Part shown: in pieces, positions 864-21,515 of the stretch | Layout: the number at the start of each line of letters is the position of its first letter | Numbering within the stretch: the stretch's first letter is position 1 | From: Cytobacillus oceanisediminis | Lineage (GTDB): Bacteria > Bacillota > Bacilli > Bacillales > Cytobacillaceae | NCBI RefSeq assembly: GCF_003182355.1 | Contig: NZ_QGTW01000003.1 | Coordinates: 361,273 to 385,272, forward strand | Length of the DNA: 24,000 nt | Direction: 5' to 3' | Position numbers and translations under genes: made by a program | Notes under the pieces: model-generated | What the model was told of the DNA's origin: nothing | Database searches by the model: none | The model's input: the letters and a program-made list of their open reading frames with translations, nothing else

Positions 864-2930
864 TTATTGCATGCTAATATTTGCAATATTATATTTCTCC
901 AGCTTATAATACAGATTCCTCACCGACAATCCCAGCGTTTTTGCTGTCAGCGTTTTATTTCCTTCAAGCTTCTGCAGCGTCTGGCGGATCATTTTTTCCT
1001 CATATTGCTCAACCAGTTGAGACAGTGTTTTATCCTGTATCACCTCACTTATTTCCTGACTGGCAGCTGTGCTGTTCGAACTGATTAGTTCCGGGATATG
1101 CCTTTCCTCTATTTCCGTTTCATTGTAGCTCATAAAGATTATGGCTCTGCCGAGTATGTTATCCAGTTCTCTTACATTCCCCGGCCAATCATAGGCCATC
1201 AGCTTTTCAATCGCTTTTTCCGTTACTCCCTCAACATTTCTCCCATATTCCTGATTAATTTTTTGGATCAGTCTGCTGCTAAGCAGCGGGATATCTTTTT
1301 TTCTTCGCCTTAAAGAGGGAATATGTATCGGCATCCTATTTAGCCTATAGTATAAGTCTTCCCTAAAAGTGCCATTAGCAATTCCTTTTTCTAAATTGAC
1401 ATTTGTTGCGGCAATAATCCTGACATCAATATGGATTGGCTTAGTTCCTCCGACCCGCGTAATTTCATGCTCCTGCAGAACCCTTAGCAGCTTGGCTTGA
1501 GTATTGGCTGTCAACTCTCCAATTTCATCGAGAAAGATGCTCCCTTTATCAGCCTCTTCAAAAAGCCCTCTTTTTCCGCCTCTCTTGGCTCCGGAGAACG
1601 CGCCTTCCTCATAACCGAACAGTTCGCTTTCCAATAATGATTCAGATAAAGCAGCACAATTCACTCTTATAAATTTGTTATATTTTCTGTCACTCGCATT
1701 ATGGATGGCATGGGCAAACAGTTCTTTACCTGTGCCAGATTCGCCACGGAGCAGAACCGTGGCCGGTGTTTTGGCGCCGAGCTTCGCCTGTTCTATTGCA
1801 ATAGTTATCTCTTCTGATGTTCCAATGATATCTTCAAATGAATATTTTGCCTCCAAAGTCCGGATAATCTGCCTGGCCCGATGCAATTCCCTGTTTAGGC
1901 TTTGAATTTCCGAGACATCATGAATAACGCCTACACTTCCTTTTAATTTTCCATTAACGATAACTGGAGCGACATTAACTACAACATCCTTCCTTTTCGG
2001 TCCGACCCTCATGGCCACTCCTCTCATCGCTCTTCTTGTTTGAAGCACCTTCATATGTACACTTTCACCTTCAGATATATCTGTCGTTGCAGGCTGGCCG
2101 ATAACCTCTTCCTCTTTAAGTCCTGTCAGCCGTGAATAGGCCGGATTGATTAATATCCCTTTTCCGTTTTCATCTACAACTGAAATAGCTTCTTCACTGG
2201 ATTGGATAATTGCCTGAAGCATTGTCTGTATTTCCTTGAGATTAGTTATTTCCTCAGCCAGCGTGACTACCTCAGTAATATCTTTAAAAACAGCGAAGGC
2301 ACCCATCAGCTCATTATTTTCACCAAGCATCGGAATTCTCGTTGTGATAATCTTAAGGCCATTCTCTAAAATCATTTCCTGATTGACCTCTACCCTTCTC
2401 GTTTCCAATACTCTGGGCAGCAGGCTATCCGTTATAACGTCATTCACCTTTTGGCCGATAGCGTCTTTTCTTTTTATTCCGGTCATTTTCTCTGCACTTC
2501 GGTTAAAAACAGTAATTCTGGCATGATTATTAATGACGATCATGCCATCATCAGTAGAATTAAAAATCAAATCATGTTTATAAGCTTCATTTCTGAACTT
2601 CGAAATCAGCTCTTCCTTTTCTTCAAGAAGCTTTGCGATTAAATAAGCAACACTTCCCGGTATTAAAACAGTGTCCTTGCTTCTTGCTTCTCTAATATCT
2701 ACAAAGACCTGTTCATTCCCAGTAACCTCTATAATAATATCTATATTTTGATTCATGAATTCGCGCCAATCGGTGCCAACAGGAATCCCATTTTCTTTTG
2801 CAAGCTTCAGTCCAGGAGCATCGGAATTAACATCTACCATAGCTTTAACATCCAAAATAGCTGTTTCTTTTATAATTTTCAATATAGCTGTTCCGCCTTT
2901 TCCTGCTCCAACAATCATAGCTGTTTGCAT
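864..2930 (-). CDS. bkdR: sigma-54-dependent transcriptional activator BkdR (N-terminal GxGxxG domain, PAS domains, AAA+ domain, HTH)
   Basis: 688 aa. Walker A GESGTGKE, sigma-54 contact loop [15 protein letters not shown], Walker B IFLDEIGE, and a C-terminal Fis-type HTH ([17 protein letters not shown]). Position upstream of ptb matches B. subtilis bkdR. Confidence 0.9.
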
Positions 2931-3086: not shown

Positions 3087-3323
3087 ATGATCAGACTAAT
3101 TGCATTATTGATTCTTTTGCTTCCAGGTGTACTAGCTGTTTATGGAATAAAATTAATGAGAGATATGGTTTTTGGCATCCTGCAGAGCCCATTTCCTTAT
3201 TTATGGCTTCAATTTATTGCAGGATTGCTGTTTTTACTAATCGGGCTTGGCTTTATCGCAGGCTTTGTCCTTTACCGCGATCGAAAAAGAAATAAGGTGC
3301 AAGCACGGTTTAAGATAAAATAA
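3087..3323 (+). CDS. yqzF: small two-TM membrane protein, YqzF/DUF2627-like
   Basis: 78 aa with two hydrophobic helices and a basic tail (YRDRKRNKVQARFKIK). RBS GAAGGGA. Divergent from bkdR, as I recall for B. subtilis yqzF; the symbol rests on memory of synteny and size. Confidence 0.65.
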   Translation: MIRLIALLILLLPGVLAVYGIKLMRDMVFGILQSPFPYLWLQFIAGLLFLLIGLGFIAGFVLYRDRKRNKVQARFKIK

Positions 3324-6456: not shown

Positions 6457-8139
6457 TTATTTTAACTGATTGGCTAGCTGGAGCAATTCTTTGGCATGCT
6501 CTTTCGTTAAATCGGTGATTTCAACTCCTGAAATCATTCGCCCGATTTCCTTAATTTTTTCATCATCCGTTAAAGGTTTGACAGTTGTTTTTGTTCGCCC
6601 GTCTTTTATGTTTTTGGCAATAAATAAATGTGTATCCGCCATTGCAGCAACCTGCGGCAAATGTGAAATGCATAAGACCTGCGAGTTTACGGAAACATGG
6701 TGAATTTTCTCAGCAATTGCCTGTGCAACCCGGCCGCTGACCCCTGTGTCTACCTCATCGAAAATGATGCTGGTAACCCCTTGATGCTTTGAAAAAATGC
6801 TTTTTAAAGCCAGCATTATTCTGGACAGCTCCCCACCAGAAGCAATCTTTGACAATGGTTTGACAGGCTCTCCCGGGTTGGTGGAAATATAAAATTCAGC
6901 CCTGTCAATCCCATTCTTTAAAAAGCCGTCAGGTTCAGAAGAGAATCTGACTTCAAAAACGGTCTTTTCCATATATAATTCCTTAAGCTCTTTGTGGATT
7001 AACTTTGTTAAATGAAGTGCCGCCTTTTTCCTTAGCCGGCTTAGCTCTTCCGCTTCAACCAAAAGGTCTTTTTTCAGCGCAGCAACTTCCTTCTGGAGTT
7101 TATCAATATGCGTCTCTTTATTTTGAAGCGTTTCAATCTCCTCTTCAATCTTCGCTGCATACTCCAGGACTTCTTCCACCGTCTTCCCATACTTTCGTTT
7201 TAAACCGTTAATTTCGTTAAGCCTGTCTTCTATTTCGTTAAGCCGCTGAGGGTCATATTCCATAAAGTCCATCTCATTGCGGAGTGATCTTGCAGCGTCC
7301 TCCAGCATATAGAAGCTGTTTGATACATTCTCGGCTATTTCTTTATAGGCGGGATCCAGCTCAGCTGCATCCTGCAAATGCCCCATAACCATCCCTATCC
7401 AGTCAAGACCCTTTTGTTCGCCCTGAAGGCCGTTATAGCCTGTTTGCAGGGAATCATAAATACGCTCAAAGTTAGAAAGCTTTCTTCTTTCTTCAAATAG
7501 CTCTTCATCTTCATTTATTTTTATCTGAGCCGACTGGATTTCATCCATCTGGAATTGTATTAAGTCCAGCCGGTGTGCCATTTGCTGTTCATTTTCGCTT
7601 AAATTTTTCAGTTTTTTTAACGTACTTTCATACGATTTGTAAATCCCCTGATATTCTGCTAAAGCGTTTGATATTTTATTCCCGCCAAATTGATCCAGAA
7701 GTGATAAATGCCGAGTTTCGTCCATAAGCTCTTGGTGCTCATGCTGTCCGTGAATATCAATAAGAGTACTTCCTATTTCCCTTAAGGTTGAGATAGTAAC
7801 AAGTTTCCCGTTAACCCTGCAGACACTCTTCCCTGACTTTGATATATCCCTCCGCAGGACTACCATTCCATCTTCAATTTCTATGCCAAATTCCGATGTT
7901 TTCCTATAACAGGGATGTTTAGGGTCGTCCAGTTGAAACAGTCCTTCAATTACGGCCTTATCCTCTCCGTGGCGGACAAACTCGGCCGATCCCCTGCCGC
8001 CAACAAGCAAATGAATCGCATCTATGATGATTGACTTCCCTGCCCCGGTTTCACCGGTTAAAACAGTTAAGCCCTTTTCAAATGTCACAGAAAGGGCTTC
8101 TATAATAGCAAAATTTCGTATTGATATTTCATTTAACAA
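6457..8139 (-). CDS. recN: DNA repair protein RecN (SMC-like ATPase)
   Basis: 560 aa. Walker A GETGAGKS, long coiled-coil middle, signature SGGELSRIMLAL, Walker B IIFDEVD. TTG start 6 nt after GAGGTG. Confidence 0.95.
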   Translation of the reverse strand: MLNEISIRNFAIIEALSVTFEKGLTVLTGETGAGKSIIIDAIHLLVGGRGSAEFVRHGEDKAVIEGLFQLDDPKHPCYRKTSEFGIEIEDGMVVLRRDISKSGKSVCRVNGKLVTISTLREIGSTLIDIHGQHEHQELMDETRHLSLLDQFGGNKISNALAEYQGIYKSYESTLKKLKNLSENEQQMAHRLDLIQFQMDEIQSAQIKINEDEELFEERRKLSNFERIYDSLQTGYNGLQGEQKGLDWIGMVMGHLQDAAELDPAYKEIAENVSNSFYMLEDAARSLRNEMDFMEYDPQRLNEIEDRLNEINGLKRKYGKTVEEVLEYAAKIEEEIETLQNKETHIDKLQKEVAALKKDLLVEAEELSRLRKKAALHLTKLIHKELKELYMEKTVFEVRFSSEPDGFLKNGIDRAEFYISTNPGEPVKPLSKIASGGELSRIMLALKSIFSKHQGVTSIIFDEVDTGVSGRVAQAIAEKIHHVSVNSQVLCISHLPQVAAMADTHLFIAKNIKDGRTKTTVKPLTDDEKIKEIGRMISGVEITDLTKEHAKELLQLANQLK

Positions 8140-8157
8140 TCATATCACCTCATTTAA

Positions 8158-8335
8158 AAAGCGAAGGCGCCTCGCTGTAGGAACGCAGACTAAAGGCGCC
8201 ACGTCCTGTGGCAACGTCTGCATGACCTGCATCCTGCAGGCCTCAAGCACAAGACTCGCCTCACAGGAAGGTTTTCTTTACCTTTCTGGGAGGCTTGGCT
8301 TGTGACCTCGAGGCGGGCAGTCGCTGAAGCTGGAC
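8158..8335. repeat. GC-rich intergenic insert, probable divergent member (copy B) of the repeat family
   Basis: About 180 bp, clearly GC-richer than its flanks. AAGGCGCC occurs twice. Hairpin CAGGAAGGT-N7-ACCTTTCTG at 8262-8286. Shares GACTCGC(C/T)TC and GCGCC-TTCGC-like blocks with copy A. Relationship and orientation uncertain. Confidence 0.45.
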
Positions 8336-8364
8336 AAGTATCGAATTACTAGCTCATTTACAAT

Positions 8365-8814: not shown

Positions 8815-8884
8815 TTTTATCACCTCTATATTTTAAAAGCGTGTATCCGCTAATAGGCTACGGCTTTTTAAAGAATAGCTCTGT

Positions 8885-8965
8885 TAAGCTCGCCTGCTGA
8901 TTTCCGCTCCAAATCAACTAGCGCTAAAATCAACAAGAGCTTACATAGCCTAAATATTAAATCAT
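8885..8965. repeat. intergenic repeat element, copy C (short copy)
   Basis: 8900-8965 aligns with 3514-3582 at roughly 80% identity (see copy A). Confidence 0.7.
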
Positions 8966-9100
8966 AAACCAAGTATAATCTAATCATATGTTAGCCGATT
9001 TTCCTTATAAAGTACAATTTTTCCCCGTATAGGATTATAATTCGTTAAAAAACGACAAAATCCCTTGTGATCAAACAATAAAAGAGGAACAGGCTTCCGC

Positions 9101-9946
9101 CTATTCCTCCCCATTCTCCTGCTTTGTCTTTAACCCGGCATGTGCTTCTTTTACAACTGCATCAGGCTGGAGTTTTAAAAGATTTTCTCCCTCTTCTTTG
9201 CTGCCCGCCCAATACAAATGCAGTAAAAACTCTATATTTCCGTCTCCGCCTGTGATTGGCGAGAAAGAAACATCTTTCACATCATAGCCAAGGCCAAGCG
9301 AAAATTCAATAATTTTTCCAAGTACTGATTCATGGACCTTCGGATCTCTGACGATCCCTTTTTTCCCAACCTGTTCACGGCCTGCCTCAAACTGCGGCTT
9401 AACAAGAGCCACTACATCACTTCCGGATACCAGAAGTGTTTTTAGGACAGGCAGAATCAATTTTAGCGATATGAAAGAAACATCTATGGAAGCAAAATCA
9501 GGCATTCCTGCAGTAAGATCGGCTGGCGTAACATAGCGGAAGTTTGTCCTTTCCATGACCACTACCCGTTCATCCTGCCTTAGCTTCCAGGCAAGCTGAT
9601 TATAGCCTACATCCAGCGCGTAAGACATCTTTGCACCGTTTTGCAGCGCACAATCCGTAAAGCCGCCTGTGGAGGAACCAATATCAAGCAATATTTTGCC
9701 TTCGACATTTAAATCAAATACCTTTAGGGCCTTTTCAAGCTTTAGCCCTCCGCGGCTGACATAAGGCATCACTTTCCCTTTTAAAGTTAAAGGGATATCA
9801 ACGCTTACTTTCTCGCCGGGTTTATCAAGGCGGCTTTCATTGCTGAAAACCAGGCCAGCCATCACAGCTCTTTTAGCTTTTTCCCTTGTTTCGGCAAGAC
9901 CTCTCTCAACTAATAAAACGTCTAATCGTTCTTTCTTTGTTTTCAT
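9101..9946 (-). CDS. yqxC: TlyA-family rRNA 2'-O-methyltransferase (S4 domain plus FtsJ-like methyltransferase)
   Basis: 281 aa. N-terminal S4 RNA-binding region (RLDVLLVERGLAETREKAKRAV) and SAM motif DIGSSTGGFTD. Position between dxs and argR matches B. subtilis yqxC. Confidence 0.9.
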   Translation of the reverse strand: MKTKKERLDVLLVERGLAETREKAKRAVMAGLVFSNESRLDKPGEKVSVDIPLTLKGKVMPYVSRGGLKLEKALKVFDLNVEGKILLDIGSSTGGFTDCALQNGAKMSYALDVGYNQLAWKLRQDERVVVMERTNFRYVTPADLTAGMPDFASIDVSFISLKLILPVLKTLLVSGSDVVALVKPQFEAGREQVGKKGIVRDPKVHESVLGKIIEFSLGLGYDVKDVSFSPITGGDGNIEFLLHLYWAGSKEEGENLLKLQPDAVVKEAHAGLKTKQENGEE

Positions 9947-11854: not shown

Positions 11855-12472
11855 TCACTTTCGTTTCTTATTCGTCCGTTGTTTTAATTTCGTCTTTTTC
11901 TTGTCTTTTATTATAACAATATGGAATTTATCCTCAAGAAAATGCAGGATCTTCCCTACCTGGAAGATAATATCTTTAGAGTACCTTATTGCAAGCGATT
12001 TTCCAAATGCTTTTCCTCCCACGGTCACGGCGGCAATGATGCTTGTTATGATTACTGAAGATGCATATTCAAAAAGGCTGCTGTTATTCATCTGAAATGA
12101 GACGGTTAGCTGTACAATGACGATTGCAGCCGCAGCACCGCTGATAATGCCAGAAATATCGCCAATAACATCATTGCAAAAACTGGCGAACCGGTCCGCA
12201 TTTCTAACAATGCGAATCGAATGCCTGGCTCCAAAAACTTTATTCGAGGCCATAGAATGAAAAGGTACCTCATCTGCAGCAGTGGCAGCAATTCCTATCA
12301 TATCAAAAAAAATGCCGATTAAAACAATAAATCCAACAACAATCAGCCCAGTTCCCCATGATACACCGTTCAATATGGAGTTTGAAATAATTGAAAAAAG
12401 AGCCGCTAGCACAAAAGTGATAACGGCAATACTAAAGCTCCATTTAATCGAATTCCGCAGCAACTCTCTCAT
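11855..12472 (-). CDS. oapA: small multi-pass membrane protein with a Lys/Arg-rich C-terminal tail; candidate OLE-associated protein A
   Basis: 205 aa with about four hydrophobic helices and the tail KDKKKTKLKQRTNKKRK. Sits between the structured RNA and dxs, the position reported for oapA in Halalkalibacterium (Bacillus) halodurans. Assignment is by context and architecture, not by alignment. Confidence 0.7.
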   Translation of the reverse strand: MRELLRNSIKWSFSIAVITFVLAALFSIISNSILNGVSWGTGLIVVGFIVLIGIFFDMIGIAATAADEVPFHSMASNKVFGARHSIRIVRNADRFASFCNDVIGDISGIISGAAAAIVIVQLTVSFQMNNSSLFEYASSVIITSIIAAVTVGGKAFGKSLAIRYSKDIIFQVGKILHFLEDKFHIVIIKDKKKTKLKQRTNKKRK

Positions 12473-12504
12473 TTCTGTAAAACTTCCTTTTTGGATTAAG
12501 AATG

Positions 12505-12602
12505 AAAAAGGGGCGGAGCTCGCCGTTTTTTCGCGAAATCGATTCCGCTCGTCAGCTTCAGCAAGAGCTTCGCCTCTTTATTTTTGCTTATTAAGCTTTA
12601 AC
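12505..12602. repeat. intergenic repeat element, copy D, between the OLE-like RNA and oapA
   Basis: Shares GCGAAAT, (A)TTCCGCTC, CAAGAGCTT and AAGCTTTAAC blocks, in the same order, with copies A and C. Contains the small GC hairpin GGCG-AGCTC-CGCC (12512-12524), flanked by T-runs on both strands. Confidence 0.55.
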
Positions 12603-12639
12603 CGTTCCACAACCTGCCCTTATAACGCTTATATATGTA

Positions 12640-13275
12640 TGAGAGGGGCAAACCCCTCAGAAACTCGAAAGAAGGATGGCCATACAAAGGGTTAAGATTG
12701 CGGCTTAGGTCCAGTAGGTTTTCCCAAGCGAATACCGGATGTCGCCATACCGGCGGTTTCCCTTTAAATACGCCTTAGCCGTGTCGCCACCAGCTAGACT
12801 GGATTGCCACTTAGTCCGCACTATAATCCCCTTTATATGTCATTGGAACAGTCTAGGAGATTTCCTCGGCAGCCTTTAACCATTTCCCTAGCCTCTTTTG
12901 CAAAGAAGATTTCATACAGGCGAAAAAGCATATATCAATGGCCAACTGATGTATGCCCTTATAACTGTAATCCCCTCTATCTTCACTCAAGGCAGGCTAC
13001 GCTGCTAGTGACCTCCCATGGGACCACATTGCAGGTTCATAACCCGAGACCATAGGGCCGTACGCTTTCGCTCAAGCCTGATCATCGGGGCCTCCGCGGT
13101 GAAAGGGTCAACGCCCACATGCCTTTGCAGATCGCCCTTACACCTTACTCCCTGAATCGACCCAAGGCTGGGCGCCTCAAGCCAAAACAAGGAACTTCAT
13201 CGATGTGCCCTTTAGTGGATTTTTAGCCCCACCTTCAGGAATGGTAGACCGACTAGAATACTGCACCATCCATAT
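12640..13275 (-). ncRNA. ole: OLE (ornate, large, extremophilic) RNA candidate
   Basis: The ~860-bp gap between ispA and the membrane-protein gene has no credible ORF. The ispA-[RNA]-oapA-dxs context is that reported for OLE. The ~630-nt length fits. Helices visible on the minus strand include GGATGGT...ACCATTCC, nested GGTG/CACC with AAGGG/CCCTT, GC-GAAA-GC (GNRA loop), GTGGTC-CCATGGGA-GGTCAC and GAGGGG-TTTG-CCCCTC. Ends are approximate (about +/-50 nt). Confidence 0.75.
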
Positions 13276-13281
13276 ATACCT

Positions 13282-13310
13282 ATTATACCATATTTGCGAT
13301 TGTGCAACAA
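13282..13310 (-). promoter_or_regulatory. strong sigma-A promoter with extended -10, driving the OLE-like RNA
   Basis: Minus strand reads TTGTTG (13310-13305), 17-nt spacer ending in TGg, then TATAAT (13287-13282). It begins about 24 nt after the ispA stop with no intervening terminator. Confidence 0.6.
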
Positions 13311-13333
13311 TCGGCCGCCCCTGCCCAGCCCTC

Positions 13334-14227
13334 TTAATGGTCCCTGCTGGCTACTAAATCTGTTATTGCCTCTAGTAGTTCCGTATTTAATCCAGTTTCT
13401 TTCAATTTTCCCTTGGCAGCCTTTATGTGGCTTTCAAGCGCTTCTTTAGCCCCCTCCATTGTAAGAAGGGAAGGATAAGTGCTTTTGTTTTTTGATTCAT
13501 CGCTGCCAATAGGCTTTCCAATCATATCTTCTGTGCCTTCAAGATCAAGAATATCATCCCTGATTTGGAAAGCCAGCCCCAGGTGATAGGCAAAATGGGA
13601 TAAAACCTGAACGGTTTCCTGATCGGCTTGTGCCAATATTGCACCCGATACAACGCTGCACTCCAGAAGCTTGCCTGTTTTATGCAAGTGGATGTATTCA
13701 AGATCTTCCAAAGCCAACTGCTGCCCTTCCCCATTAATATCTGCTACCTGTCCGCCAACCATCCCTTCTGCTCCGGATGCTTTGGACAGTTCCTTAATTA
13801 AAGAAAGCTTTATCTCAGCTGAAGCAAATTCATCCGGTGTTTCGGCGACAGACTGGAAGCTATATGTAAGCAGTGCATCTCCTGCAAGAATGGCAAAGGC
13901 TTCTCCAAATATTTTATGGTTCGTTGGTTTTCCTCGCCTCAAATCATCATCATCCATGCTCGGAAGGTCATCATGTATTAACGAATATGTATGAACCATC
14001 TCAATTGCTGCAGCCGTCCACAAACCTTTAATAGTATCCTCCCCAAAGGCAGCCAATGTAGCAAATAACAGCAATGGCCTAATGCGCTTGCCTCCTGCCT
14101 CAAGAGAATAAAGCATTGATTCTTTTACTGCAGGAGGAGCATTCAATTTGCTTATGCTTTCCTTTAGCTGATTTTCTAGAATTTTTTTATGGTGTTCAGA
14201 AAAAGAAACCAAGGATTGTTCCAGCAA
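13334..14227 (-). CDS. ispA: farnesyl diphosphate synthase (polyprenyl synthetase)
   Basis: 297 aa. First Asp-rich motif DDLPSMDDDDLRRG and second motif DDILD. TTG start 7 nt after AGGAGG. Confidence 0.93.
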   Translation of the reverse strand: MLEQSLVSFSEHHKKILENQLKESISKLNAPPAVKESMLYSLEAGGKRIRPLLLFATLAAFGEDTIKGLWTAAAIEMVHTYSLIHDDLPSMDDDDLRRGKPTNHKIFGEAFAILAGDALLTYSFQSVAETPDEFASAEIKLSLIKELSKASGAEGMVGGQVADINGEGQQLALEDLEYIHLHKTGKLLECSVVSGAILAQADQETVQVLSHFAYHLGLAFQIRDDILDLEGTEDMIGKPIGSDESKNKSTYPSLLTMEGAKEALESHIKAAKGKLKETGLNTELLEAITDLVASRDH

Positions 14228-20248: not shown

Positions 20249-21515
20249 ATGAAAAACATTGAGGAAATAAGGAAAGAGGATCTTATTAGCAAATTCGCTT
20301 GTGGTTAAGGCTGCTTTTGTAAGCGTTATATTGGAAAGCCCTTGTAGATATCGCCTTAAAGAAAGAGATGGCTGTTACCCTTTCAATTATTATTGCAGGA
20401 GGAATTGTGATAGGAATAGTTGCCGCGTTTCATTTTTCTAAAAAAGTTCATGTCCGCCATCCCCTATTTGGCGATTTTTTTGGTTGGAAGTGTGCTATTC
20501 ATTATCATGGAAAACAACGTATCGCGGGCTGCTTATTTTTTAGTCTACTTTGTTCTTGCAACAGCGGCAATTTATTTGGACAGAAAGATTTTATGGCTTT
20601 CATCAGCAATTGGCTTTACTGTTATTACAGTGTTGCCATACCTGCATCATAGCCACCTGCCGCTGGAATCAAAAAACTATTCAACCATTTATTTGCTTTT
20701 TATGCTTGTCAATATTATGCTCTCTTTTCAGCTTTCTATCTCGAAAAAACTGTCAGAAAATATTATCTCTGCTCAGAAAGAAACTGAAAATCTATTGCAT
20801 CAAAACCTTAAAATTAAAAAGACAATTTAGAATTGTACTGCAGGTCTTTCTTTCATGATTGATGAAGTTAAAAAATGAGCCAGGAGAATTACCATTCTGC
20901 AAGGGAAATGAGCTATACGATTGGGGAGATTTCTGCAGGAATCCATACCCAATCAGATACCATTCTGGATGTCACCAGTTCTCTGGAAAATTCAAATAAA
21001 GTGGTGAGCAATGCAAGTGAACTAGTTGGAAAATTGCATAATGATGCTTTGAAAGCGGAGAAAGCGGCAAAGGCTTTGCAGTTGTAGCGGAAGAAGTAAG
21101 AAAATTAGCTCATATTACAAGGGAAACAGCAAATCAAATATCAGAGAACCTTTACAATGTCATTCAAGAAACGGAACAATCCCAAGTCAATGTAATCTCT
21201 ACAGGTGATAAATTAACGGCAAATCTTGATTTGGCCTCAGAAACAGAGAGTGCTTTTGAAAAAATCCTGGAAACCTTTTTGCAGCTTAAAAATGATATAT
21301 CAGATTATAAGTCTTTAACCACTCAAATCCATCAGTCCTCTTCGTCTATAGGAGTATCAATTGGGGAGTTTAGTTCAGTTGTTGAGGAGACGAGCGCTTC
21401 CCTCCAGGAAATTTCCTCCTCTGTCGCATTCCAGACAGAGCAATATGAACATCTTGTTGAATCGATTAAAAAAGCCCATTATTCGATGGAACACCTAATT
21501 AATCTTCAGAAATAG
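20249..21515 (+). pseudogene. decayed methyl-accepting chemotaxis protein gene (multiple frameshifts and stops, truncated signalling hairpin)
   Basis: Coding potential hops between frames: 20249-20308 (MKNIEEIRKEDLISKF..*), 20323-20652, 20420-20830 (TM-rich N-terminal module), 20875-21087, and 21045/21072-21515. The MCP signature GFAVVAEEVRKLA (21072-21110) is out of frame with the preceding segment. The expected upstream ...LLALNAAIEAARAGE... tip is reduced to DALKAEKAAK. Confidence 0.7.

Follow-up and report, generated by a model that had tools for sequence, protein, structure and literature searches.

A full-length OLE RNA gene upstream of oapA in the ispA-dxs interval of Cytobacillus oceanisediminis

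The window analysed here is a stretch of 24,000 nucleotides from Cytobacillus oceanisediminis (assembly GCF_003182355.1, contig NZ_QGTW01000003.1, positions 361,273 to 385,272 of the forward strand), in which a gap of 861 bp separates the stop codon of ispA (13334) from the following minus-strand gene, which starts at 12472. With very little doubt, this gap holds the canonical full-length ole gene, encoding the large noncoding OLE RNA, of a Cytobacillus oceanisediminis-like member of the Bacillaceae, and it is followed by the partner gene oapA. A preliminary description, made from the letters of the window without database searches, had put the gap at about 860 bp, which the measurement bears out, and had placed an OLE-class RNA at 12600-13310. 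That span does bracket the OLE RNA; it is too long by about 25 nt at the 5' end and by 60 nt at the 3' end.

RNA families were assigned by comparing the whole window with Rfam 15, and a second, permissive scan covered 12400-13400 on both strands. The OLE family (RF01071) matched positions 13285..12660 of the minus strand with 503.8 bits (gathering score 50, E-value 3e-145), and the match extended over the complete model (1-616 of 616 positions). The proposed check with the OLE covariance model on the minus strand thus returned a full-length match at ten times the gathering score. Because the OLE copies of relatives score 500-534 bits, the copy in the window is a typical one. The host belongs to the Bacillota, and the RNA is situated in a cluster of isoprenoid, DNA-repair and translation genes. 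No evidence was counted against the identity as OLE, and the limits stated below concern mechanism.

For comparison, 54 loci encoding relatives of OapA were fetched from named genomes, and 42 full-length OLE copies were aligned using MAFFT. For pair counting, the Rfam structure was projected via the window row of this alignment and P1 was added, giving 159 pairs. In the window copy 141 of 153 model pairs are canonical (92%, considering pairs with both nucleotides present). Over the 42 sequences 90.1% of the cells are paired, as compared with 40-45% when the partners are slid by 1-3 columns, and the covariation score is 0.454 as compared with about 0.1 in the slid controls. Both sides have changed at 110 of the 159 pairs, and none of 500 shuffles reached any of the observed pairing measures. 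P1, which is missing from the Rfam structure line, covaries as well: it reads GGAUGG/CCAUCC here and GAGUGG/CCACUC, GGGUGG/CCACCC or UAAAGA/UCUUUA elsewhere. The published OLE secondary structure is independently supported by these fresh loci, and the covariation among related genomes that had been suggested as a check is present in the form of compensatory changes. Four helices had been named by eye, three of which belong to OLE: GC-GAAA-GC sits at the tip of P7 (13071-13064), the GGTG/CACC plus AAGGG/CCCTT pairing is P6 (13146-13094) and GTGGTC-CCATGGGA-GGTCAC is P8 (about 13025-13006). The fourth, GAGGGG-TTTG-CCCCTC, is real but lies in the 3' flank, outside the model.

Three forms of OLE are distinguished in the literature, namely the full-length form, variant 1 (short P7-P9, OapB site often missing) and variant 2 (lacking P7 and P8) (PMC11332333). 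The core conserved nucleotides are common to the window copy, variant 1 (TANB77) and variant 2 (RF39). Unlike these variants, the window copy keeps a P7 of 49 nt, P8, a long P9 arm of 101 nt and the OapB site in P13, with its GCGA loop and one-nucleotide bulge. It is of the standard full-length type; variant 2 is excluded because P7 is present, and a reduced variant of either kind was rejected on the landmark motifs and on the folding of P7, P8 and P9. With the full-length OLE of the model organism Halalkalibacterium halodurans C-125 it shares P1-P15 (including P7, P8 and the long P9), the A-rich loop L4, the kink-turn (k-turn) at P5, the palindromic loop L9.3, the GNRA loop and one-nucleotide bulge of P13, a proximal promoter of its own, oapA directly downstream and the nusB...recN neighbourhood. 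P7 is the most variable region of the OLE family (helix 6), and its alignment to the covariance model is poor in the distal part; unlike in H. halodurans, the P7 sequence of the window is lineage-specific. The features of the locus are summarized in Table 1.

Table 1. Positions in the window of the OLE RNA, its landmark motifs and the adjoining features
Feature	Position	Strand	Basis or remark
OLE RNA as delimited by Rfam	12660..13285	-	503.8 bits; P1-bounded core 13271-12674
Proximal sigma-A-type ole promoter (predicted)	13282..13310	-	Read from sequence and conservation
P1	GGAUGG 13271-13266 with CCAUCC 12679-12674	-	Covariation in 42 sequences
L4 A-rich loop GCUAAAAAU	13219..13227	-	CUAAAAAU in 41 of 42 aligned OLEs
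P5/P5.1 hairpin with flanking k-turn strands	13143..13204	-	Alignment to published k-turn; OapC site in H. halodurans
k-turn 5' strand AUCGAUGAAGUU	13204-13193	-	Identical in 39 of 42 sequences
k-turn 3' strand GGGAGUAAGG	13152-13143	-	One U fewer than consensus UUAAGG
L5.1 loop GCGCCCAGC	13175-13167	-	Present
P6/P6.1, with loop GCAAAGGCAUGU at 13128-13117	13094..13146	-	Helices 4 and 5 covary; bS21 region in H. halodurans
P7, lineage-specific 49-nt hairpin with GAAA cap	13042..13090	-	Folds alone at -21.3 kcal/mol, z-score -1.97
P8 hairpin CUGCA..GUGGUC-CCAUGGGA-GGUCAC..GCAG	13002..13034	-	Model match, covariation (helix 7), folding
P9 long arm, 101 nt	12894..12994	-	-28.5 kcal/mol, z-score -2.59; all 14 helix 13 pairs covary
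L9.3 self-complementary loop UGGCCA	12947-12936	-	Dimer kissing loop B3
P13, 8 bp, GCGA tetraloop, single-nucleotide bulge	12794-12781	-	OapB site in H. halodurans
UUUAAAGGGAAACCGCC junction	12768-12752	-	OapB site in H. halodurans
P14.1 GCGA loop	12749-12739	-	OapB site in H. halodurans
3'-flank hairpin GAGGGG-UUUG-CCCCUC	12643..12658	-	-11.1 kcal/mol, z-score -3.6; no U-tract after it; outside the Rfam model
Terminator-like branched helix	12505..12579	-	AAAGAGGCGAAGCUC (12579-12565) pairs with GAGCUCCGCCCCUUU (12521-12507); inner hairpin; U-run 12509-12505
oapA, OLE-associated membrane protein of 205 aa	11855..12472	-	Ribosome-binding site AAAGGAAG at 12490-12483

The numbering of the Rfam OLE model coincides with that of H. 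halodurans (U84 and C85 lie in the C helix of the k-turn), so that the sites published for that species are directly checkable in the window copy. The sequence motifs of dimerisation (GCUAAAAAU in L4, GCGCCCAGC in L5.1, GCAAAGGCAUGU in L6.1 and UGGCCA in L9.3), known here from sequence alone, are all present. L4 forms the dimer bridge B1 in structures determined by cryo-electron microscopy (cryo-EM) (PMC12286853, PMC12265935). L9.3 keeps a palindrome in 40 of the 42 sequences, with UGGCCA, GAGCUC and GGGCCC as alternatives; switching of this palindrome and an intermolecular kissing loop were reported earlier (PMC12286853), and the pattern in the fresh loci reproduces that evidence at the level of sequence.

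The k-turn at the base of P5, which is the OapC site, consists of a C helix with U84.G and C85-G, a 3-nt bulge and tandem G.A/A.A pairs (PMC9723947). Its elements U84, C85, the G-A-U bulge and G89-A90 can be aligned in the window copy. The 5' strand, AUCGAUGAAG, equals the consensus, and the 3' strand keeps AAGG but is one U short (GU-AAGG), a form common to 12 of the 42 sequences. Binding of OapC at this site is predicted from the motif. Recognition by OapB needs a GNRA loop plus a one-nucleotide bulge (PMC7936274), and both are found in P13; the bulged base is G here, a small departure from U498 of H. halodurans that many relatives have in common.

In H. halodurans, the 3' strand of P6 carries an anti-Shine-Dalgarno mimic, 5'-CCUCCU, that underlies the binding of bS21 (PMC12054373). 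The same strand of the window copy (13109-13094) reads GACCCUUUCACCGCGG and lacks CCUCCU, while the helix itself is kept by covariation. CCUCCU was found in none and CCUCC in two of the 42 OLEs, a set of Bacillaceae, Paenibacillaceae-like and clostridial sequences in which H. halodurans is not included as a positive control. The mimic is not family-defining, the Rfam consensus being lower-case at those positions.

The predicted ole promoter comprises a -35 box TTGTTG (13310-13305), a spacer of 17 nt and an extended -10 element TGgTATAAT (13290-13282), from which transcription would start near 13275, 4-6 nt before P1. The first four positions of the Rfam OLE model overlap the -10 box. The promoter is invariant in all five loci of the Cytobacillus group, whereas the adjacent upstream sequence drifts, and in 17 of 19 Bacillaceae loci a TATAAT box is located 15-21 nt from the conserved GUGCAG box. 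A promoter and terminator scanner missed it, because the -35 box matches at only three of six positions, and flagged mostly chance sites inside oapA. The proximal ole promoter of H. halodurans is experimentally active, with a start close to P1 (PMC3413148); by analogy, the element in the window would be its match. The conserved sequences suggest that OLEs of the Bacillaceae generally have a proximal extended -10 promoter.

The spacer between ole and oapA differs from that of the H. halodurans system in that it is long and includes a hairpin together with a terminator-like helix. The 3' end of the Rfam match is separated from the start codon of oapA by 187 nt in the Cytobacillus group. Measured from the end of P1, the distance is 195-203 nt in this group, 36-113 nt in other Bacillaceae and as short as 8-27 nt elsewhere; among the Bacillaceae loci the long spacer occurs only in the Cytobacillus group. 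It consists, in order, of the 3'-flank hairpin (12658-12643), about 55 variable nucleotides, the branched helix (12579-12505) ending in UUUUU and the ribosome-binding site of oapA. The hairpin is invariant in the five Cytobacillus-group loci and is a putative protective or processing hairpin at the 3' end of the RNA. The branched helix is conserved in sequence in the five loci and was picked up in four of them by a dedicated scan; the promoter and terminator scanner flagged only its inner GC stem, on the plus strand. From its layout, this helix may be a partial intrinsic terminator that uncouples the abundant OLE RNA from oapA and dxs. Upon exposure of H. halodurans to ethanol, OLE rises about 7-fold and the oap mRNA only modestly (PMC3413148), which by analogy is consistent with some uncoupling of ole from oapA.

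Several observations weigh against such a terminator. The helix (minimum free energy -25.7 kcal/mol) folds no better than shuffled sequences (z-score only -1.3), the z-score of the whole spacer is -0.62, and the consensus fold of the five spacers shows essentially no covariation (1 of 42 predicted pairs changed on both sides). In this strain the helix contains an A.C mismatch. Furthermore, many lineages have spacers of 8-38 nt with no terminator, so that uncoupling is not a general requirement. Given the weak z-scores and the near absence of covariation, it is sequence conservation that argues for the spacer structures. A competing explanation, which we consider the less likely one although it deserves serious attention, is that the two helices are not a terminator and represent either a cis-regulatory leader for the translation or stability of oapA-dxs or the residue of an inserted repeat. 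The lineage specificity of the spacer and the insignificant fold of the helix fit this explanation, as do the end of the helix only about 20 nt before the ribosome-binding site of oapA and the strain-variable inserted elements that the argR-recN gap of the same genomes holds. On the other hand, the stem is directly followed by UUUUU and has an A-rich 5' flank, which is the standard layout of an intrinsic terminator; no Rfam family matches the spacer, and no further copy of its element was noticed in the window, although copies were not searched for systematically. A partial terminator remains the preferred interpretation of the helix. A further step, that the Cytobacillus-specific spacer is a regulated attenuator that sets the stoichiometry of OLE to OapA and gates dxs and the isoprenoid flux under the stresses handled by the OLE ribonucleoprotein, is speculative and rather improbable.

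The gene downstream of the spacer encodes the small membrane protein that the preliminary description had noticed between the RNA and dxs. It is OapA, as identified by its homologues, an invariant DxxxD motif and its hydrophobic segments. The search yielded 5609 homologues, the nearest named one being from Cytobacillus sp. NCCP-133 (94%), and OLE is located directly upstream of oapA in 54 of 54 homologous loci. Published work describes OapA as a small membrane protein of four helices that carries DxxxD, has a basic tail on the cytoplasmic side and weakly resembles CNNM (PMC11332333). In the window protein the motif reads DVIGD (D101-D105) and is invariant in 16 sequences ranging from Bacillaceae to Christensenellaceae and in 20 closer homologues. 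Kyte-Doolittle analysis gave four hydrophobic segments (about 7-39, 32-69, 101-128 and 131-158), and the tail contains 12 K/R among the last 30 residues. The Pfam CNNM family (PF01595) scored 20.7 bits, below the gathering threshold of 28.4. With this weak similarity OapA is a distant relative of the CNNM/CorB/MpfA Mg2+ transporters; unlike these it lacks CBS and CorC domains. A sequence search of the PDB with OapA gave nothing meaningful, that is, no solved relative by sequence. An AlphaFold2 model of the monomer (alignment of 20 sequences) has four long helices and is too poor for a test of a CNNM-like fold (predicted local distance difference test 57.6, predicted template modelling score 0.40).

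With NCBIfam and Pfam, the gene order was determined as nusB-folD-xseA-xseB-ispA-ole-oapA-dxs-tlyA-argR-recN, the classic arrangement for OLE, followed by spoIVB and spo0A, which agrees with the order from xseA to recN read from the letters. The preliminary description had placed a ppnK/nadF gene before argR in other OLE loci. This is correct for some lineages, such as Thermoanaerobacterium (locus L039), in which Pfam finds an NAD kinase between tlyA and argR, but it does not extend to the Bacillaceae: in all 20 of their loci the tlyA-argR gap is 97-463 bp and none contains an NAD kinase, as compared with gaps of about 900-1000 bp in many clostridial loci. The missing ppnK is a difference from the full-length OLE system of H. 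halodurans as described; it is lineage-typical for all Bacillaceae loci fetched and was rejected as an anomaly.

The OLE segment is the best-conserved DNA of the locus. Its identity to Cytobacillus sp. NCCP-133 (locus L007) is 96.1%, versus 81-88.5% for the flanking coding genes, and its identity to Mesobacillus is 86.5%, versus 67-79.5% for the flanking genes. These values bear on the alternatives to a functional OLE. One could regard ole as a decaying remnant that resembles OLE in sequence and has lost its function in an aerobic mesophile. In favour of this, the host lineage is no obvious extremophile or anaerobe, a difference from the H. halodurans system, and the RNA itself shows two departures: the 3' strand of the k-turn is one U short of the consensus, and CCUCCU is absent, so that bS21 as a partner is not to be extrapolated by sequence. 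Such decay is very improbable. The RNA is more constrained than the neighbouring genes, 92% of the model pairs are intact, the motifs for dimerisation and protein binding are all retained, oapA is intact with its invariant residues, the ole promoter is conserved, and many other lineages likewise have the shorter k-turn strand and no mimic.

That the gap codes for one or more small proteins, the helices being incidental, has next to nothing in its favour beyond the presence of three mechanical open reading frames of 61-137 aa (12804-13055 and 12282-12695 on the plus strand, 13005-13190 on the minus strand). These start at TTG or GTG, and no ribosome-binding site was reported for any of them in the preliminary description, which had seen no plausible protein gene in the gap. 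That view was correct: since the OLE segment is more conserved than every flanking protein gene, the opposite of drift at wobble positions, and since substitutions within it compensate one another at 110 of 159 helix positions, coding frames in the gap were ruled out. A large RNA of some other class, be it a group II intron, a ribozyme or a riboswitch leader of oapA-dxs, would fit the size and the dense nested helices by eye but is scarcely credible, because the permissive scan of 12400-13400 on both strands gave no family at an E-value of 0.1 or below other than OLE (1e-146, spanning all 616 model positions), the sole other match being an sRNA at chance level (25 bits, gathering score 55, E-value 0.26), and the region has no intron-encoded protein and no exon junction.

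The window equals a Logan contig of 24 kb from SRR7175142. Over 20.6 kb it shares 96.4% identity with the public genome of C. oceanisediminis CGMCC 1.10115 (NZ_VLKI01000003.1, locus L005), whose OLE (9187-9813 of that locus) is 99.4% identical to the one described here (504 bits). Promoter, spacer structures and gene order are the same in both, and the two RNAs differ by a few point differences, e.g. G against A at nt 7 and an additional U close to nt 406. The preliminary description had considered any new host or variant worth examining; this was overstated for a standard full-length RNA of which a public genome of the same species carries such a copy. A survey across GTDB reported 2,822 OLE hits in Bacillota (PMC11332333), and we infer that it covers this species and that a match of 500 bits cannot have been missed. 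No paper naming OLE in Cytobacillus was found in the literature examined. Neither the class nor the type of this OLE is new, and in effect the host is not new either.

In addition to the sequence shared with CGMCC 1.10115, the window contains a Bacillaceae-1 element and a block of about 970 bp. The Bacillaceae-1 RNA (RF01690, 80.9 bits) is located at 8174-8240 on the plus strand between recN and argR and forms an insertion of about 70 nt relative to the 96%-identical locus L005 and to JAGGRA010000014.1 (locus L004). In Bacillus sp. J33 (locus L006) a degenerate remnant occupies the recN-argR site and a full copy is found at 6480-6541 of that locus, between folD and xseA. Because its presence and site vary among close genomes, this motif behaves like a small mobile or insertion-prone element rather than a fixed gene. 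The same intergenic region contains, at about 8245-8360, a segment of about 150 nt with long inverted repeats (CCTCGAGGTCACAAGCCAAGCCTCCCAG ... CTGTGAGGCGAGTCTTGTGCTTGAGG). L005 and L004 have this segment too; Cytobacillus sp. NCCP-133 and Mesobacillus lack it, and in them only about 20 nt separate argR from recN. The segment resembles a palindromic repeat element of the intergenic kind. The block of about 970 bp (about 20323-21294), between the spoIIIA genes and accB, is a strain-specific insertion: it has no counterpart in CGMCC 1.10115, in which the flanks are contiguous, and it carries plus-strand open reading frames of 136 aa (weak, sub-threshold match to DUF4077) and 70 aa (no Pfam match). 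The tlyA-argR intergenic region (8824-9100) varies between close strains; 8873-8950 could not be aligned to L005, and the gaps in L004 and L007 are about 230 bp longer than those in L005 and L006. The record L004 was deposited as 'Pseudomonas sp. ISL-84'. It contains a Bacillaceae sporulation and ole locus 90.7% identical to the window (OapA 98%); almost certainly it is a Cytobacillus assembly that was mislabelled or contaminated. Two genes unrelated to OLE lie downstream of spo0A, at the left end of the window, and encode a sigma-54-dependent PAS-domain activator of 688 aa (864-2930, minus strand) and a small DUF2627 protein (3087-3323, plus strand).

From the sequence and the experiments in H. 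halodurans, the ole RNA would be a stable RNA, driven to a high level by an extended -10 promoter of its own. Between the strands of P1 (13271-12674) it is expected to fold into domain 1 (P3-P9) and domain 2 (P1, P2 and P10-P15). Two copies may then dimerise through the A-rich L4, the L5.1/L6.1 contacts and the palindromic L9.3 kissing loop, as in the cryo-EM structures from other species. By analogy with other species, an OapA dimer would tether the RNA to, or through, the cell membrane, while P13, with its GNRA loop and bulge, would be recognised by OapB and the basal k-turn of P5 by OapC. The ribonucleoprotein formed in this way may help the cell to tolerate alcohol, cold, an excess of Mg2+ and poor carbon sources (PMC9723947, PMC7936274, PMC12286853, PMC12265935, PMC11332333). 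From published correlations, the host genome is expected to have oapB (ybzG) and oapC (ybxF), both outside the window, and to lack mpfA. In the Cytobacillus group, the conserved hairpin and the terminator-like helix might end most ole transcripts, so that only read-through would reach oapA and dxs; termination in the spacer would keep the OLE RNA abundant and the membrane protein scarce. Family membership, secondary structure, landmark motifs, partner gene and synteny are observed directly in this locus.

OLE is among the largest bacterial noncoding RNAs whose biochemical function still awaits explanation, and possibly the first RNA in nature that spans a membrane. The copy in the window, standard in form and context and nearly identical to a public one, adds little that is new. 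Its value lies in the independent confirmation, in fresh loci, of the published structure and of the palindrome switching in L9.3, and in the evidence for a proximal extended -10 promoter across the OLEs of the Bacillaceae. The anti-Shine-Dalgarno mimic of H. halodurans is not conserved, which calls for caution in generalising the interaction with bS21. Were the attenuator reading of the spacer true, OLE would be linked to the conserved genes around it by a cis-regulatory element not described before. The lineage-specific structured spacer between ole and oapA could serve the study of how the levels of an RNA and its protein partner are uncoupled.

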